64,000 nucleotides of DNA from a bacterium (GTDB taxonomy: Bacteria; UBA8248): contig OZ253442.1 of the NCBI GenBank assembly GCA_965261085.1, positions 224,001 through 288,000 of the forward strand. The letters are read 5' to 3'. Of the stretch, positions 49,993-57,543 are shown one piece after another (position 1 is the first letter of the stretch; every line of letters starts with the position of its first letter). Under the pieces are notes generated by a model. That model had not been told where the DNA came from. It was given only the letters and a program-made list of their open reading frames with translations, and did no database searches. The translations under genes and the position numbers were made by a program.

Positions 49993-51809
49993 GAGACTGT
50001 GAAAGTATCGACCCTCGTAGTCTCCAGAACGGGGCTCGCTTACGCTTGCAGCCGGCAGGCCGATGGCCGGACACTGTCATCAACCAGGGGAGCAACAACA
50101 CCGCAGAACCGGGAGAGAATCGCCTCGGCGGCCGAGCAGTTCGGGGTCGCGGTCAAGTCTTCGGGGAATCGGGGTCAAGTTCACACGCCAATTGTCCCCA
50201 ACCGCTGTTTTTGCAGACAATACTCCGCAAATGCAGCTTCGCCCAACACATTCATTACCTGCTTGAAGTTGTAACCCAGCGTCATCAGGCTGAATTCGCC
50301 GCGGCACTTGCCGAGTCCGCGCATCAGAAAATGCTCCATCCCCGCCCAGCGCCTGAGTGTACCGAACGGATGCTCGACGAGTTCGCGTCGCCCGCGCATC
50401 AACGGCGCATCGGCGCTCATCTTCCTGCGATGCCGGTCCACCACGTCCTCATGCTCCCAGCGCTGTATCCTGCGCGTCGATCTCGACTTCGCCAGGCATC
50501 GACCCGACAACGAACAATCCCGACAAACAGCCGCCGTCCCGCGATAAATGAAATACAACTTGCCCTTGTTGATTGCCGAGCCGCCTCTTGCCAGCCGCTC
50601 TCCGGCCGGACAGACATACGTGTCATCCTGCGCATCGTAACGGAAATCATCGGCGCCGAATCGCCCGTCCCTGCCCTTGCGGACCGCATGGTCCGGTATC
50701 GAAACATACGCCTCCATGCCCTTCTCTTCGCAACTCTTCAACCCGGCACCGTTGAAATAGCCCGAATCCGCCAGACCCACCAGGCCTTTGCTGCCCATGG
50801 CTTCGCGGGACTTCGTCATCATCGGCTCCAACTGAGCGGAGTCATTGCCGTCCTGCACCACATCCTCCGCGACAATCAGCTTGTGCCTGTCGTCCACCGC
50901 GATTTGACAGTTGTATCCGCCCACCATCTTGCCCTTCTTTATCAGCAACCGCGCATCGTCATCGACCTCGGATACCTGACCCTCTCCGCTCTCCAGCAAG
51001 CGCTTTTGCAATGCCTTCTTCTTTTGTTGCCTCTCGACCAGGGCCTCGAGCTTCGACGCCAGTTCCGGATCCTCCGAACCGTCCGCATACTCTTCCGCAT
51101 CCGCCTCGTCCATCTGCCGGTGATACGCCGCAATCTGCTCGTCCAGACGCTTCAGGTATCTTTCCAGGGATACCCTGGTATGGAAGCTGTCCGGATTCGC
51201 ATCGGCCTTCAGATAAGTCCCGTCAATCGCCACCCGGGTGCCGCCCAGAAGTGAGAGTTCGCGGCACAAGAGTACGAACTCCCGGTTGACCGCCCGAAGA
51301 GCAGCCGCATTGTTCTTGCGAAAATCCGCTATCGTCTTGTAGCTCGGCGACGCACCCTGGCACAGCCAGATCACTTCCAGATTGCGCTGCGTCTCGGCTT
51401 CGAGCCGACGCGAACTCCGTACCCGGTGCTGGTAGCCGTACAGATACAGCTTCAGCAGCAGCGCCGGGTCGAACGCCGGCTGACCGGCGCCGCAGTTCGC
51501 TTCGGCATGCTCGAATCCCAGCGCCTGCAGATCCAGCGTGCCGACGAACGCCTCGATCGCGCGCACCGCATTGTGCTCGGACACGTAGTCGTCCAGACAC
51601 GGCGGAAGTAGCATCATCTGGCTTCGGGACTGCACCTCCTGATAACGTCTCTCGGACATGGTGGTGATCCTTTATCTGGTTGTCTCACTCGCTGATAATG
51701 ATAGCATCTACAGACAATCCGGCCTTCATTCGCCATCGTCTCTCACCTGACTCGTTGAATATCCCCTCATCGAGTCGCTCGACGCTCGTGGGAATACTTT
51801 CACAGTCTC
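49993..51809 (-). mobile_element. IS1182-family insertion sequence
   Basis: TIRs GAGACTGTGAAAGTAT at 49993-50008 and 51794-51809 (extendable by 2 bp); no TSD and non-matching flanks. Confidence 0.88.
50181..51659 (-). CDS. IS1182-family transposase
   Basis: P..LLKLYLYGY....SSRRLE, P.YKTIADFR, AIDGT..KA, GYN.Q.AVD, ADSGY and VEHPFGTL motifs. Confidence 0.95.
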   Translation of the reverse strand: MSERRYQEVQSRSQMMLLPPCLDDYVSEHNAVRAIEAFVGTLDLQALGFEHAEANCGAGQPAFDPALLLKLYLYGYQHRVRSSRRLEAETQRNLEVIWLCQGASPSYKTIADFRKNNAAALRAVNREFVLLCRELSLLGGTRVAIDGTYLKADANPDSFHTRVSLERYLKRLDEQIAAYHRQMDEADAEEYADGSEDPELASKLEALVERQQKKKALQKRLLESGEGQVSEVDDDARLLIKKGKMVGGYNCQIAVDDRHKLIVAEDVVQDGNDSAQLEPMMTKSREAMGSKGLVGLADSGYFNGAGLKSCEEKGMEAYVSIPDHAVRKGRDGRFGADDFRYDAQDDTYVCPAGERLARGGSAINKGKLYFIYRGTAAVCRDCSLSGRCLAKSRSTRRIQRWEHEDVVDRHRRKMSADAPLMRGRRELVEHPFGTLRRWAGMEHFLMRGLGKCRGEFSLMTLGYNFKQVMNVLGEAAFAEYCLQKQRLGTIGV

Positions 51810-52101
51810 AGATCGCCTCTGCATCCGAGGCGTCGTTTTTCTGACGTTTAACGTACGCCTTCACATATCGCGGTGGCATGATCTTCACCTCATGGCCGAT
51901 TTCGCCAATCTCGCGGCCCCAATAGTGCGCGTTCCCGCATGCCTCCATCGCGACCCGGCACTGCGGCTGCGATTCTAGAAAACCCAACACCTTCCCCCGC
52001 GTCAGCTTCTTGCGGAACGCGACCGACCCGTCAGGGTTCGCACCGTGAAGTTGAAAACCGTGTTTCGCCAAGTCGATGCCGATGATGTGGACCTGTTTCA
52101 T
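51808..52101 (-). pseudogene. Truncated IS110/IS1111-family recombinase, interrupted by IS1182
   Basis: IGIDLAK, MEAC..AHYWGR and KNDASDAEAI, then the IS1182 end; paralog of 55807-56832. Confidence 0.88.
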
Positions 52102-52310
52102 CTCGCTCCTCCCGCAGGGCGGCAGACCATGTCAACACGCCCAGTTTGATGGCGCCGGGAGGGGCGCAGAAATGCCCCCTCCTACCCGGCCACAAATTTT
52201 GTAAGCATTCGGTCGAGGGGTGATGGTGTCCGCGTAGCTCATTCCGGATAATCGAAGAGATTCCCGTAAGGTGCTGGTAACATCTTCCGGCATGTGGTAA
52301 TCATGTCGGC

Positions 52311-54629
52311 ATGAAGATTTGCACGGAAGCTGTCGAGACGGAGCCGGCGTTGGTCGAGAGGCCGGATGAGCCATGGCCTCATCCCCCCGAGTTGTTCACA
52401 ACCGGAGAGGCGTACTGGCGTTCGCTGTACGAGCGCGAGCGTGCGCGCGCGGAGGCGGCGGAAGCGCGCTGCGAGGAGTTGCGGTGGAAGGAGGTGGATA
52501 CGCGCACGCGGGCGGGTTCGCTGAAGTGGTATCTCGACAACTGCCGGAGGAAGCTTGCCGCGAGCGTCGGGAAGTTGAAGGAAGTCCGCCGCGCGGCGAA
52601 GAAGGACATCCTGGCGCTCGAGGCGGAAGTGGCTCGACAGGAGAAGCTTCTTCGCAAAGCCGGTGTCGAGCCGGGCAAGCGCAGCCCGCTCGCGTCGCTG
52701 CGCAAAGAGGTGGCCCGGTTGCGCAAGGCTCTCTCGGGCGCGTTGCCTCCGGGGGAGGCCGCGCGGCTGCGCAGAGTCGTGGAGAAGCGGGAGAATACGA
52801 TCGAGTCTCTGCGCAAGGAGATTGAGGGGCGGGAGGAGGCGCTCGCCCGGCTGAAGAATCGGCTGGCCTGGGAGAAGCTGGAGACGAAGTCTCAGAAGAA
52901 GACGGTCCAGTGGCGTGACGAGGAGGTCATCCGGCTCTGCGGGAAGTTGCGGGAATTGCGTGACGATTTGCGGGTCTCCCTCAGGGCCGCGGACGTCGCG
53001 AAGGAACGGCTGAAGGAGCGGTTGTTGCGCGCGAAGGAGGCGTTGCGCTCGAGGTCGCCGTCTCGTTCGGACGCGGAACTTCGCAAGGCCCTGGGGAGGT
53101 CGCGGCGTCAGAAGACGGCGCTCAGGTCCCTCTCCAGGGAGAACGGGCGGTTGTGCCGTGCGCTTCGCAAGTCGGAGACCCACAGGGCGCGGCTGGAGGC
53201 CGAGCTCGCGAAGCTTCGCGCCACCGGAGCGGTGCTGGCGAGAAGGCTGTTCGGGCGCGGGAGCGAACGACAGGAGAGGCCACGCTCGGAGCGCAGGCGC
53301 GGCGGGCAGCCCGGCGCCCAAGGCCATGGCCGCACCCCGCGGCCCGCGCTCGGGGAGAGGACCGAAGTTCGCAACCCGCCGGCCAGCGCGCGCGTCTGCG
53401 CCGGTTGCGGGCAGCCCTACGTGGCGAACGGCGCACGCATGTCGAGCATCGTCGAGATCGAAGTCTCGGCCTACAGGCGGGTCATACGCCGTCCGAGGTG
53501 GCGCCGGGTGTGCGCGTGCGCGTCGTCTCCCATGGAAGTGTCGGCGCCGCCTGCGCCGCGCCTGTTTGCGGGCACGTCTTACGGGACGAGCGTCTGGGCG
53601 CGCCTGCTGTTCGAGCGCTACGCCTGCTTCCGCCCACTCAACCGGGTCGCCGCGTGGCTCTCCGACCAGGGACTTCCGGTCTCCGCGGGCACGCTGGGCG
53701 ACAGCACACACCGCTTCACGCCGCTGTTCGAGCCGCTGGCCCGGGCGATCCTCGCCCGCCAGAACGAGGCGGCGGTGCGCCATGGGGACGAGACGACGTG
53801 GCGCGTACAGTCGCTTCGCGAGCAAGGACGCTCGAGCCGCGCCTGGCTGTGGGCCTCGGTAAGCACAGACTCCGTCTACTTCCACGTCGACCCCTCGAGG
53901 AGCGCCGATGTCGCGATGAAGCTGTTCGGCGCGGCCGGCCCCCATACAGTCATCGTCTGCGACCGCTACAGCGCCTACAAGAAGCTGGCGCGCGAACTCG
54001 ACGGCGCCGTGAGTCTTGGCTTCTGCTGGAGCCACGTTCGGCGCGATTATATCCACTGCGCCGCCGGCGATGCGCGGCTGACGTCGTGGTGTGAGAGATG
54101 GATCGGGCGGATTGCGCTGCTCTACCGCCTGAACGAGGCGCGCCTGGCCCGTTACGACTCAGGCTTCGAACGCCAGGACGCGGCGTTCGAAGCGGCGCAG
54201 GCCGCGCTCAAGAAGGCGCTCGATAGCCTGTTCGCGCAGGCCCGACGGGAACTGTCGGCCCTGCCGGCGCAGGTGCGCGAGGGCAAGGCGCTTCGCTCAC
54301 TGCTGAACCACCGCGAAGGGCTGAGCGTCTTCGTCGAGCGCCCCTCGGTGCCAATGGATAATAACGCCGTCGAGCGCGCGCTTAGGGGACCGGTGATCGG
54401 GAGGCGGCTCTCGTTCGGCTCCGTGAGTGAGGCCGGCGCCAGGTTCTCGGCGATGATGTACTCGGTCCTCGGCACCCTCGCGTCGAACGGCATCGACCCG
54501 CTCCGCTGGCTGGAGGCATGGCTCACGGCCTGCGCGGAGAACGGCGACCGGGCGCCCGGGGACCTCTCCGCGTGGCTGCCCTGGTCGATGAATGAGGAGC
54601 GCAGGCGCGCCCTCATGGCGCCGGGATGA
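52311..54629 (+). CDS. IS66-family transposase TnpC with a long coiled-coil N-terminus
   Basis: LFGRGSE, GGQPG..GHGR, C..C, HGDETTW.V, CDRYSAY, CWSHVRR and DNN..ERALR motifs. Confidence 0.93.
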   Translation: MKICTEAVETEPALVERPDEPWPHPPELFTTGEAYWRSLYERERARAEAAEARCEELRWKEVDTRTRAGSLKWYLDNCRRKLAASVGKLKEVRRAAKKDILALEAEVARQEKLLRKAGVEPGKRSPLASLRKEVARLRKALSGALPPGEAARLRRVVEKRENTIESLRKEIEGREEALARLKNRLAWEKLETKSQKKTVQWRDEEVIRLCGKLRELRDDLRVSLRAADVAKERLKERLLRAKEALRSRSPSRSDAELRKALGRSRRQKTALRSLSRENGRLCRALRKSETHRARLEAELAKLRATGAVLARRLFGRGSERQERPRSERRRGGQPGAQGHGRTPRPALGERTEVRNPPASARVCAGCGQPYVANGARMSSIVEIEVSAYRRVIRRPRWRRVCACASSPMEVSAPPAPRLFAGTSYGTSVWARLLFERYACFRPLNRVAAWLSDQGLPVSAGTLGDSTHRFTPLFEPLARAILARQNEAAVRHGDETTWRVQSLREQGRSSRAWLWASVSTDSVYFHVDPSRSADVAMKLFGAAGPHTVIVCDRYSAYKKLARELDGAVSLGFCWSHVRRDYIHCAAGDARLTSWCERWIGRIALLYRLNEARLARYDSGFERQDAAFEAAQAALKKALDSLFAQARRELSALPAQVREGKALRSLLNHREGLSVFVERPSVPMDNNAVERALRGPVIGRRLSFGSVSEAGARFSAMMYSVLGTLASNGIDPLRWLEAWLTACAENGDRAPGDLSAWLPWSMNEERRRALMAPG

Positions 54630-54633
54630 CGCC

Positions 54634-55506
54634 GTGACCGAGTGCCGCTACTACGGGCGCGACTTCACGACGGAAGAGATGGCGCTGCTGCGCGCGCTGA
54701 TCGCAGGCTCTCCTGCGCTCAACCGCCATGCGCTCTCGAAGGAGTTCTGCCGCCGCATCGGCTGGTACAAGCCCGACGGCGGACTCAAGGACATGATGGC
54801 ACGGGTGACCATGCTCGCCATGGACAAGGACGGCCTGATCACGCTCCCCCCGCCGATGCGGCCACGCCACGCGGCTCGGCCAATCGTCTTCGGACCCGAC
54901 ACCGAAGCGCCTCTCATCCCGTCGCCGACCACCCTCGATGAGGTCCGCCCCATCGGGATGCGCATCGTCGTGCGCGGAACCCGCGAGGGCCAGCTCTGGA
55001 ACGAGTTCGTCGCCCGCTACCACTACCTCGGTTACAAGACCCTCGTCGGCGCACAGATGCGCTACGCCGTCCACGACCGCGACGGCAGGCCCCTCGCCAT
55101 GCTCGGCTTCTCCACCGCCGCGTGGAAGCTCGCCCCGCGCGACAGCTTCATCGGCTGGACGCCCAAGCTGCGTGAGAAGAACCTCCCCTTCGTGGTCGAC
55201 AACCCGAGGTTCCTCATCCTGCCATGGATCAAAATCCCCAACCTCGGCTCGCACCTCCTCGCCATCATCCGCAGGCGCCTGCCCGGGGACTGGACCGAAC
55301 GCTATGGCGTCACCCCCGTGCTCGTCGAGACCTTCGTCGAAACGCCCCGCTACACCGGAGCCGTCTACAGGGCATCGGGATGGATTCCCGTTGGAACCAC
55401 CCAGGGACGAGGGCGCTACGACAGGGACAGACGCTACGACAAGCCCAAAAAGGACGTCTGGCTAAGGCCGCTCCGCAGCAACTGGAAGCAAGTCCTCAGC
55501 CGCTGA
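54634..55506 (+). CDS. DUF4338 (DruA-like) protein
   Basis: YYGRDF, WN.....YHYLGY..LVGAQMRY, AAWKLAPRD.FIGW, RFLILPW....NLGS, ETFVE...G..YRASGW..VG.T.GRG motifs. Confidence 0.88.
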   Translation: MTECRYYGRDFTTEEMALLRALIAGSPALNRHALSKEFCRRIGWYKPDGGLKDMMARVTMLAMDKDGLITLPPPMRPRHAARPIVFGPDTEAPLIPSPTTLDEVRPIGMRIVVRGTREGQLWNEFVARYHYLGYKTLVGAQMRYAVHDRDGRPLAMLGFSTAAWKLAPRDSFIGWTPKLREKNLPFVVDNPRFLILPWIKIPNLGSHLLAIIRRRLPGDWTERYGVTPVLVETFVETPRYTGAVYRASGWIPVGTTQGRGRYDRDRRYDKPKKDVWLRPLRSNWKQVLSR

Positions 55507-55550
55507 AACAAACCCCATCACCCCTCGACCGAATGTGTATGGACGCGCCC

Positions 55551-55806
55551 CAAAATGCAAGCTTTTTCTTCGGACAGTTCGGCGCAATGTGGTCAGGCGC
55601 AGTCGTGTATTCGGCCTCTAGATTGCGGCGTTTCCCTCTTGCCACGGGCCCGTATGGAGATGCGCGGATCGGGTCCGAATCGCTTACGCGAGCTTGAAAG
55701 CTCTCCATTCAGGTCCTGGTTTTCCCGATCCCGTCTCATTGACCGTATGCCCCTTACCTGTCCTCCGACCTGCTCACATTCCCGGCATTATCCGCTCGCC
55801 TGCCGC
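55551..55806 (-). ncRNA. Predicted bridge/seek RNA region of the IS1111-type element
   Basis: Non-coding end downstream of the recombinase. Stem GGATCGGG/CCCGATCC encloses target matches CTGAATG and GTAAGC; a second loop carries the donor-junction match ATACACGA. Confidence 0.75.
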
Positions 55807-56832
55807 TCAGGCGGCCGGCACCGGCTCCTTGTAGACCTCTTTTTTCGTCATCAGCGCCCAGGCGATGCGCGCCATCCTGTTGGCCAGCGCCACCGCGACC
55901 AGCATACGCGGCTTTCGCGCCAGCATCCGGGCCAGCCATGAGCCCGGCGGAGCGCCGCGCCGGACCGCCCAGCGCACCACCGTCATCGCGCCTATGATCA
56001 ACAACCGCCTGACGTCGCGCTGGCCCATCTTCGATATCCTGCCCAGCCGGGGCTTGCCACCGGTGGAGTGCTGCCGCGGGACGAGCCCGAGCCAGGCGGA
56101 GAAGTCGCGACCGCGCCGGAAGCTTTCCATCGGCGGCGCGAAGGCCTGGATCGCCATCGCCCCGATCGCCCCGATCCCCGGTATGCTCATCAGGCGCCTC
56201 GCCTCCTCGTCTTGGCGCGCACTCGCGAGAAGTTGCCTCTCCAACTCCCCGATCTTCGCATTGAGGCCGGCGATCTGATCGAGCAGAACCCCGCCCAGAT
56301 CGCGGACCGCCTCGGGCAGGCCCAAGCCCGGATCTGCAACGGCCGACGCCAGCCGCGCGACATGGGCGGGACCCTGGGGAGCAACGACGCCGAACTCCGC
56401 CAGATGGCCGCGCAGCGCGTTGATCGTCTGGGTGCGCTGTCGCACCAGCAAATCGCGCGTGCGGAACAGCATCCCTCGGGCCTGCTGCTCTTCAGTCTTC
56501 ACGGCCACGAAGTGCATGGTCGGGCGAGAGGCCGACTCGCAGATCGCCTCCGCATCAGCCTCGTCGTTCTTGTGGCGCTTGACGAAGGGTTTCACGTAGA
56601 TCGGCGGGATAAGCTTCACCTCATGGCCGAGCTTGCCGATCTCACGCCCCCAGTAGTGCGCGCTCGCACATGCCTCCATCGCCACCAGGCACCGCGGCTG
56701 CGAAGCCAGAAAGCCCAACACCTTCGCCCTGGTAAGCTTCTTCCGGAACGCGACCGATCCGTCCGGGCGCGTGCCGTGGAGTTGAAAGCTCTGTTTTGCC
56801 AGATCGATGCCGATGATGTGAACCTGTTCCAT
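55807..56832 (-). CDS. IS110-family DEDD recombinase/transposase (341 aa)
   Basis: GIDLAK, MEAC, KNDEADA (DEDD) and GLVP.QHSTGGK (catalytic Ser) motifs; start trimmed to ATG 56832. Confidence 0.95.
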   Translation of the reverse strand: MEQVHIIGIDLAKQSFQLHGTRPDGSVAFRKKLTRAKVLGFLASQPRCLVAMEACASAHYWGREIGKLGHEVKLIPPIYVKPFVKRHKNDEADAEAICESASRPTMHFVAVKTEEQQARGMLFRTRDLLVRQRTQTINALRGHLAEFGVVAPQGPAHVARLASAVADPGLGLPEAVRDLGGVLLDQIAGLNAKIGELERQLLASARQDEEARRLMSIPGIGAIGAMAIQAFAPPMESFRRGRDFSAWLGLVPRQHSTGGKPRLGRISKMGQRDVRRLLIIGAMTVVRWAVRRGAPPGSWLARMLARKPRMLVAVALANRMARIAWALMTKKEVYKEPVPAA

Positions 56833-57460
56833 GGATTCCCCTCCTGCAGGGCGGTAACGACACCACCTCACCACAGTGTGATGCCTTCGGGAGGGCGCGT
56901 CCATCCCATCGCTTACCAAATTTTCGGACACATATACACCAGGATGCGCAGAGGTTTTAATGAATCCGCTTTCGGTTTGATTACGGCCTGCGGCAGGAGA
57001 ATTCCAACAGGTATGGACAGGTCTAATATCTGACATAATATCAATAGGTTATATGGATTCTGCCGACGATGAAAAAGGCCCGAAACATCCAATGCACCTG
57101 ATTTATCGAAAAACCCCGTGAATTTATCGATATTTATCGTATTTTTCAGAAATTATTATTTGCATAAAATGGCGTTTCATCACTTCCGAACGAGCCCAGC
57201 CATCTTGTTCCACTTCGAACCGAAAAGCATCCCCGCTTCGTCGTCGCCTCACGCTTGGTAGTAACGATCATCCTCTTCACTCCACCTCGGAGTCACCCGG
57301 AATCAGAACCGGCGAAAGCGCCGCTTCGGGTGAGCGCGCCATTCCAGATTCCAGGATTTCACGCTCACGGCAAATGCGGTGTAGAACCCGACCAAGCAGG
57401 GCTGTTGAAAAAGTCCTGATTTCGTGCTTTGGCGAATGGTACCAACCGGGCAAGGGTTCC

Positions 57461-57543
57461 GTAGGGACAGGCCCCCGTGCCTGTCCGAGGTCGCTACGAG
57501 GCGGTGCGGCTTTGTTCGTCATTCCGGCGAAAGCCGGAATGAC
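57461..57543. repeat. REP-like palindromes
   Basis: GTAGGGACAGGCCCCCGTGCCTGTCC (GTAG-type hairpin) and GTCATTCCGGCGAAAGCCGGAATGAC. Confidence 0.55.

Follow-up and report, generated by a model that had tools for sequence, protein, structure and literature searches.

A predicted RNA-guided insertion sequence of the IS1111 group at a fixed position in the terminal inverted repeats of IS66-type elements

What brings one insertion sequence (IS) to a single base within the terminal inverted repeat (TIR) of another, and what becomes of the host element? The question is raised by a 64,000-nucleotide stretch of a bacterial genome (GTDB lineage Bacteria; UBA8248; assembly GCA_965261085.1, contig OZ253442.1, positions 224,001 to 288,000 of the forward strand; hereafter the window), in which the right TIR of an IS66-type element is split by a 1376-bp insert of the IS1111 group. 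Judging from the other copies and relatives of this insert, we consider it very probable that it is an RNA-guided element that reads the tip of the IS66-type TIR via a seekRNA (bridge RNA) and inserts at GTAAG^C, where the caret marks the point of insertion. This predicted guide RNA, the probable basis of the insertion specificity, was missing from an earlier, sequence-only reading of the same DNA, several claims of which are taken up below.

Within the IS110 family, the insert belongs to the IS1111 group; it is intact, and each testable family feature is present. As described in PMC11187229, IS1111 elements are defined by subterminal repeats of about 11–13 bp, extensions of 7 bp and 3 bp beyond these repeats (the right extension of 3 bp being a family rule), a long stretch of non-coding DNA downstream of the gene for the transposase (tnp) and the motif GL-P----S(t)G. 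In the window, the subterminal repeats (55539-55550 and 56893-56904) are a perfect 12 bp long and lie 3 and 7 nt from the insert ends; in tnp orientation the extensions read CGATGGG (7 bp) on the upstream side of tnp and ACA (3 bp) on the other. The non-coding stretch downstream of tnp measures 271 nt, from the stop codon at 55807 to the end at 55536, versus 79 nt upstream. The 341-aa open reading frame (ORF) matches the Pfam domains PF01548 (DEDD_Tnp_IS110; 1.8e-15) and PF02371 (Transposase_20; 5.6e-22) and the NCBIfam model NF033542, 'IS110 family RNA-guided transposase', with 321.7 bits against a cut-off of 140, and its translation contains GLVPRQHSTG, the IS1111 form of the motif of the C-terminal domain. 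Comparison with the intact TIR of the host reveals no target duplication at the insert junctions. The type of the insert, its length, the placement of its repeats and the lack of a duplication, all claimed by the sequence-only reading, are confirmed to the base; its coordinates also hold, with the correction that the junction with the flank slides by 1 bp (the insert is 55535-56910 or 55536-56911), because the final base of the flank is the same as the final base of the insert. In the direction of tnp, this base is a C that belongs equally to the IS left end and to the target's right half. The group is further characterized by a circular intermediate whose abutted ends create a promoter. A promoter search of the element found no sigma-70-like promoter for tnp within the integrated copy, and abutted IS ends would give only weak promoter hexamers (TTGCAT, 17 nt, CACGAT).

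The 4.27-Mb genome contains four full copies of the element, all 100% identical, plus several decayed relatives. Without exception, the full copies are inserted at ...CGACCGAATG^CTTAC, at one base and in one orientation with respect to the TIR, with the seekRNA-bearing IS end always adjoining the inner part of the TIR. One is the copy in the right TIR of the IS66 element of the window; two occupy both TIRs of a second IS66 element (C1:3786097-3789426; target site duplication (TSD) CCTTTGCC), which is identical to that of the window over 3330 nt; and one lies in a TIR of a 235-bp miniature inverted-repeat transposable element (MITE) derived from IS66. Taken together, these two identical IS66 copies have four TIRs, three of which are occupied. 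The 12-mer GTAAG^CATTCGG (GTAAGCATTC[AG]G) is found at six sites in the genome, all of them in IS66-type TIRs, and four of the six carry the element; the intact sites are the left TIR in the window and one end of the second MITE copy (TSD CTTCTGTC). IS66-type TIRs with the tip GTAAC or GTAAT are unoccupied. Such placement at IS66 tips is far beyond chance. Since the left-TIR and MITE copies differ in their interior flanks beyond 10–21 nt, at least three of the insertions are independent. A genome-wide search for copies in unrelated flanks found none among the four full copies. The specificity for site and orientation suspected from the window alone is borne out, and to call the element a hyperparasite of IS66 ends, as had been done, is a fair description in view of the occupied IS66 TIRs and the occupied MITE TIR. 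The MITE itself, which has IS66-type TIRs and the 8-bp TSD CTTCTGTC, is present at C1:3722726-3722960 and C1:2515160-2515394 (plus CTTAC past the insert); its GTAAG end is the target, and its GTAAC end is never occupied.

The region downstream of tnp contains two short blocks that match the two halves of this target. One, here termed the right guide, is reverse-complementary to the target's right half; the other, the left guide, consists of the last five bases of the left half and the shared C, and the GAU that comes directly after it corresponds to the start of the IS left end. The complement of the top strand lies 5' of the match to the bottom strand, which is the order reported for IS1111 seekRNAs in PMC11187229. 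In a predicted consensus fold (RNAalifold on 19 distinct rows), both guides are placed in an internal loop, on opposite sides, between an outer stem of 8 bp and a hairpin. A third block, AUACACGA, is likely a donor guide; by eye, it varies in relatives together with the right-end extension (ATACA, ATGCA, ACATA, ATGTA, ATATA). Sequence comparison, complementarity and predicted fold together point to a guide RNA encoded by the element.

Further evidence that these blocks act as guides comes from relatives that occupy other targets. Elements with 77–85% identity at the DNA level are present in 14 of 22 other genomes of the same genus and in none of 19 genomes from the other eight genera of the family, and each sublineage of them occupies a different target. 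An alignment of the non-coding regions of 23 relatives consists of a conserved scaffold and two variable guide blocks. When the guide blocks of 21 elements, representing 17 distinct guide pairs, were scored over 15 positions against the flanks of the stored loci, the element in the window matched its own target at 13 of 15 positions, a score reached by none of the targets of the 16 other lineages. The summed score of the 17 guide pairs with their own targets is 220; permuted pairings have a mean of 156.1 (standard deviation 7.9) and a maximum of 190, and none of 20,000 permutations reaches the observed value. Perfect matches of 15 positions are seen in three relatives (L024, L041 and L038). 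Most targets of the 17 lineages are not IS66 ends.

Three groups of relatives deserve mention in their own right. In two genomes (L016/L037 in G006:C139 and L020/L038 in G013:C139), two sublineages are inserted in the non-coding region of a sibling copy, just 5' of the putative donor guide of that sibling, and their guides (GAGGUC or GAGGCC, with GUAUGUC or GUGUAUCCG) match this sibling site; in each case, an IS has a putative guide RNA directed at the gene for the guide RNA of its relatives. Another relative (L019, G009:C25), with guides GUAACC and ACUGAACG and the right flank GGTTCAGTCGTGGGGTGATAG, points to another variant of the IS66-type TIR; its left end is atypical, with about 16 nt replacing the 7-nt extension and GTAAC before it. 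More distant relatives (65–70%) on plasmid pTiAg57 of Agrobacterium fabrum (L013) and on a plasmid of Rhizobium sp. T1473 (L014) lie at GTGAG^CGTCCGGTGAGC, one base off the canonical IS66 TIR tip; an intact site of the GTGAG type had no match in the records of these two plasmids themselves.

How far does the association extend beyond the genus? GTAAG joined to the conserved left end of the element is found in one of 44 genomes of the order, the source genome, and in at least 118 stretches of a collection of representative genomes; the junction stretches listed are mostly from Alphaproteobacteria, with a few metagenome-assembled genomes labelled as other phyla. Eighty loci taken from these stretches represent 78 distinct junctions, of which 34 had too little downstream DNA, 17 were without a right end that could be found and 27 had a candidate right end. 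Nineteen of the last group are full-length elements of 1347–1392 bp, with right flanks that mostly start with CGTCCGG; GTAAGC is present in the non-coding region of 18 of them, at the homologous position. Genes on the far side were checked in the 17 full-length elements with at least 300 nt there. In six (L080, L086, L087, L102, L114 and L126) the C-terminus of an IS66 transposase is encoded (PF03050, in five also PF13817), and in four HTH_Tnp_1 is present, which is expected of the first ORF of IS66 and is not specific. A complete arrangement is preserved in Acuticoccus yangtzensis (L080/L201), where the TSD GCCTCCAG is followed by GTAAG^[1370-bp IS]^CGTCCGG, by about 660 bp with a remnant of an IS66 transposase, by CTTAC and by the same TSD; the TIR partner in L201 was located with a 24-nt search, a 40-nt search having given none. 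Uninterrupted right ends of the IS66 type of the window in related genomes, such as ...CCGAATG|CTTAC (L167), serve as empty-site comparators. A 17-nt TIR pattern with 3 mismatches allowed, searched in five genomes, gave about as many matches as its reversed control.

Several observations weigh against an RNA-guided element specialized on IS66-type tips, or limit how far this reading can be taken. Two of the six target sites in the genome are unoccupied, and a single insertion, passed on when the host transposed, could account for both right-TIR copies, which would leave three or four independent insertions. The right guide pairs with its target at seven of nine positions, one of these pairs being G.U, and a scan of 51500-57500 against Rfam, with E-values up to 1, matched no family. 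The rows of the covariation test are kin, some with similar targets, and the permutation test therefore overstates their independence. Two relatives with IS66-type guides sit at imperfect sites, GTATC^CGTTCATC (L023) and GTAAT^GATCGTTTCGG (F1872), and two solitary right-end fragments of a 78% relative (C1:1192341-1192605 and C1:2514902-2515040) adjoin an IS66-like TIR half, CATTC[AT]GTCGTCGGG, that their guides mismatch; these fragments may be recombinants. The public loci were preselected by a pattern containing GTAAG, and therefore only the genes on the far side are independent support, yet in 7 of the 17 elements this side contains unrelated genes or nothing. Finally, the immobilization of the host IS by the insertion is a reasonable presumption.

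Assuming that the guides function as proposed, the course of events would be as follows. Both the DEDD recombinase and a guide RNA from the 271-nt region downstream of tnp would be supplied by the element, and the two guide blocks, on opposite sides of the internal loop, would read the outermost 12–13 nt of an IS66-type TIR. The element would presumably form a circle whose ends abut and would then be recombined into GTAAG^C in a single orientation, with no target duplication. Because the guides would read that site, any IS66-type end in the cell that has the 12-mer could serve as a landing pad, the ends of MITE derivatives included. With the insert in place, the outer 5 bp of the TIR lie 1.4 kb away from the remaining 21 bp, and an end occupied in this way is most likely disabled for the IS66 transposase. 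If an occupied end is unusable, neither of the two identical IS66 copies would be mobile, since one of them has one occupied end and the other two.

Alternatively, insertion and excision could work as a switch, with regular precise excision restoring the IS66 TIR and turning the mobility of the host on and off. Since no duplication arises on insertion, a precise reversal would leave the TIR exactly as it was before, and the recombinase of IS621 with its bridge RNA can mediate excision, as described in PMC13626964. According to the same source, however, excision by IS621 is less efficient than insertion. In addition, the IS1111 member ISEc11 formed circles while the re-joined target went undetected in the experiments described in PMC11187229, and a preprint describes a copy-out process in which the donor copy is preserved. 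The four identical copies in the genome likewise point to a gain of copies. The contigs of four runs, covering 55000-57400, bridge both IS junctions and contain neither a 55535-56912 joint nor a circle joint, although contigs drop rare forms. Regular switching is, on balance, unlikely.

The distribution of the copies could also be due to the host rather than the insert, if an IS66 element moved with the insert already in its right TIR, or if occupied TIRs were copied between IS66 elements by recombination. The two IS66 copies are indeed 100% identical over 3330 nt, both have the insert in the right TIR, and each composite has its own 8-bp TSD (CAAATTTT or CCTTTGCC), as expected of movement as a unit. 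Against such spread stand the different interior flanks of the left-TIR and MITE copies, with their three or more independent events, and the covariation of guides and targets, which accounts for the site with no need of passive transfer; moreover, a TIR whose tip is 1.4 kb from its inner part would hardly be usable by a DDE transposase. Passive spread as the explanation of the pattern is thus improbable. The target is also the binding site of a protein, the transposase of another element, and one could imagine that the DEDD transposase, or an IS66 transposase bound to the TIR, directs the insertion and that the complementary blocks are incidental. Nothing specific favors this. The guides change with the flanks in 17 lineages whose transposases are 77–85% alike at the DNA level, most of their targets are not IS66 ends, and four members of the IS1111 group have been shown to be RNA-guided, according to PMC11187229. 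Recognition by protein is accordingly very hard to credit, and an RNA-guided choice of the IS66-type tip remains the preferred reading.

A broader version of that reading can be offered tentatively, as a possibility that we regard as rather doubtful. The element would belong to a widespread RNA-guided lineage of IS1111 type specialized on the tip of the IS66 TIR, in which the left guide is fixed as GUAAGC and the right guide is retuned for each TIR variant, such as the CGTCCGG of many Alphaproteobacteria or the CATTCGG of this genome. It would be a hyperparasite that disables IS66 ends, including both ends of a single copy, as well as MITE derivatives; the spread of one IS would in this way be limited by another, and rare precise excision could re-arm the host.

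The host element itself can be described as follows. In the IS66 family, the target duplication is 8 bp long and the canonical layout has three genes, including the accessory ORFs TnpA and TnpB. The interrupted host (52201-55535 and 56912-56916) is 3340 bp long and is split 5 bases from the tip of its right TIR; its TIR begins GTAAGCATTCGG, and the two parts of the right TIR, when joined, form a perfect 26-nt reverse complement of the left TIR. The claim that the right TIR of an IS66 element is split, that removal of the insert restores the 26-bp complement of the left TIR and that the TSD CAAATTTT lies on both sides is therefore correct. The IS66-type elements of the genome have 8-bp TSDs throughout (CAAATTTT, CCTTTGCC and CTTCTGTC). 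The 772-aa transposase matches PF03050 (DDE_Tnp_IS66; 2.2e-56) and NCBIfam NF033517 (279 bits, cut-off 180). Between the TIRs there are two ORFs only, and the canonical accessory ORFs were not found there; because these are lacking, the host is assigned to a non-canonical IS66 subgroup. Published TIRs of the IS66 family read GTAAGCGTCCGGCGAACTCACCTT / GTAAGCGTCCGG... (PMC12888890).

The second ORF, which overlaps the transposase gene, encodes a 304-aa protein that matches PF14236 (1.3e-36). This DruA/DUF4338 gene had been called a passenger, a description that the comparison does not uphold: each of the three copies or relatives of this IS66 type in the same genome has it alongside the transposase gene, matches to it are found in 14 of 51 genomes of the class, and up to 14 matches occur in each of two of these related genomes. 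It is better seen as a constant second gene of the IS66 subgroup than as a chance passenger. The domain is otherwise known from the Druantia defence system; here it is the constant second gene of a putative IS66 subgroup. The features discussed so far are collected in Table 1.

Table 1. Features of the IS1111-type insert and of its IS66-type host, in positions of the window
Feature	Position	Strand	Remarks and basis
IS1111-family insertion sequence	55536..56911	- (tnp direction minus)	1376 bp; domains, NCBIfam, end structure
IS right end (own orientation): 3-bp extension ACA and 12-bp subterminal inverted repeat	55536..55550	-	
IS left end (own orientation): 7-bp extension CGATGGG and 12-bp subterminal inverted repeat	56893..56911	-	
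DEDD (IS110-family) RNA-guided transposase, 341 aa	55807..56832	-	Pfam and NCBIfam
Non-coding region, 271 nt, predicted source of seekRNA/bridge RNA	55536..55806	-	conserved scaffold, variable guide blocks; consensus fold
Predicted target-binding module: outer 8-bp stem, internal loop with both guides, inner hairpin	55667..55731	-	RNAalifold
Predicted right-target guide CCUGAAUG	55706..55713	-	pairs with top-strand CATTCGG of TIR: 7 pairs, one G.U
Predicted left-target guide GUAAGC	55682..55687	-	equals TIR tip and shared C; pairs with bottom strand; 6/6 positions
Putative donor guide AUACACGA	55603..55610	-	equals right-end tip and left-end start (circle junction)
Left TSD copy of IS66-type element, 8 bp CAAATTTT	52193..52200	.	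identical to 56917-56924
Intact left TIR of IS66-type element, 26 nt	52201..52226	+	first 12 nt, GTAAG^CATTCGG, are a free target site
IS66-family transposase, 772 aa	52311..54629	+	Pfam, NCBIfam
Second ORF of IS66-type element, DruA/DUF4338-like, 304 aa	54592..55506	+	Pfam PF14236
Inner 21 bp of split right TIR of IS66-type element	55515..55535	-	
Outer 5 bp (CTTAC) of split right TIR of IS66-type element	56912..56916	-	
Right TSD copy of IS66-type element, 8 bp CAAATTTT	56917..56924	.	

The surroundings of the host are also rich in mobile elements. Just to the left of the IS66 element, an IS1111-type element with 78% relatedness survives as an N-terminal fragment (51808-52101 on the minus strand, with the DNA match at 51806-52163), truncated by an IS4/IS5-like transposase gene (50181-51659; DUF772 and DDE_Tnp_1), and the IS66 element landed a few tens of bases past the end of this fragment; the region 50181-52163 and the IS66 element together form a nest in which four IS types are represented. 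Dispersed copies of a repeat of about 120–195 bp, with the core GGATGCGCAGA..AATGAATCCGC, are found 15–30 bp outside IS66-type ends at no fewer than five loci (window 56939-57135; C1:1871992-1872178, 3699634-3699807, 1192738-1192859, 2516797-2516915 and 996116-996236), and the repeat may be a preferred landing site of the IS66-type elements themselves.

In the literature searched, we found no description of insertion of an IS1111- or IS110-family element into IS66 TIRs, in agreement with the sequence-only reading, to which none was known; the papers with both names merely list IS families, and the PDF supplements of PMC11187229 and PMC11208160 may bear on novelty. Since the junction is common in public genomes, members of this group may already be named in ISfinder or TnCentral.

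With this locus, the ends of the IS66 family and the MITEs derived from them join the short list of element termini used by IS1111-type elements as landing pads, and which guide bases read the site can be told from natural variation alone. In the genus, one conserved RNA scaffold has been reprogrammed by nature with no fewer than 17 guide pairs, a comparative data set for the target rules of seekRNAs, and IS1111-type seekRNAs are under development as programmable recombinases. If the insertion disables IS66 ends, the locus is a simple instance of restraint between two selfish elements, exerted by one on the other. For annotation, it accounts for the frequent adjacency of IS110- and IS66-family transposase genes. 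The main value lies in the natural series of reprogrammed guides and in a clean example of an IS parasitizing an IS.

The closest precedent is offered by IS4321 and IS5075, members of the IS1111 family for which the reported target is a single position within the 38-bp TIRs that bound Tn21-family transposons (an account attributed to Partridge & Hall 2003). The parallel with their geometry in Tn21-type TIRs, already drawn from the window alone, holds: all are IS1111-type elements with subterminal repeats, inserted without duplication, in one orientation and at a fixed position within the TIR of another element. In contrast to IS4321 and IS5075, the hosts here are an IS66-family IS and a MITE derived from it rather than a Tn3-family transposon, the insertion lies 5 bp in from the tip, and both ends of one host copy are occupied. 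With ISEc11, ISKpn4, ISPst6 and ISPa11, as described in PMC11187229, the element shares the non-coding region downstream of tnp, the 7-bp and 3-bp extensions and the GL-P----(S/T)G motif; the targets given there are a short linear site, attC sites and repetitive extragenic palindromic (REP) sequences, whereas here the RNA and its activity are predicted from comparison. The bridge RNA of IS621 (PMC11208160) resembles the predicted guide RNA in that the left guide pairs with the bottom strand and the right guide with the top strand, within an internal loop, and in that the donor ends are read by another part of the RNA. IS621 itself, according to that source, belongs to the IS110 group, with the RNA in its left end, the opposite order of guides and a CT core dinucleotide, whereas a single base, C, is shared here. 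Divergent IS110-family copies on both sides of another IS have been described for ISPye46 of Paracoccus yeei, an IS110-family element (PMC11578231), whose authors name 'preferential transposition into ISs' as one reading and leave it open; the hosts of ISPye46 are transposase genes of the IS256 and IS5 families, and the authors define neither a position within a TIR nor a guide. The element in the window is, in comparison with these systems, a clear new example of a known behavior, by way of the known seekRNA/bridge-RNA mechanism rather than a new one.

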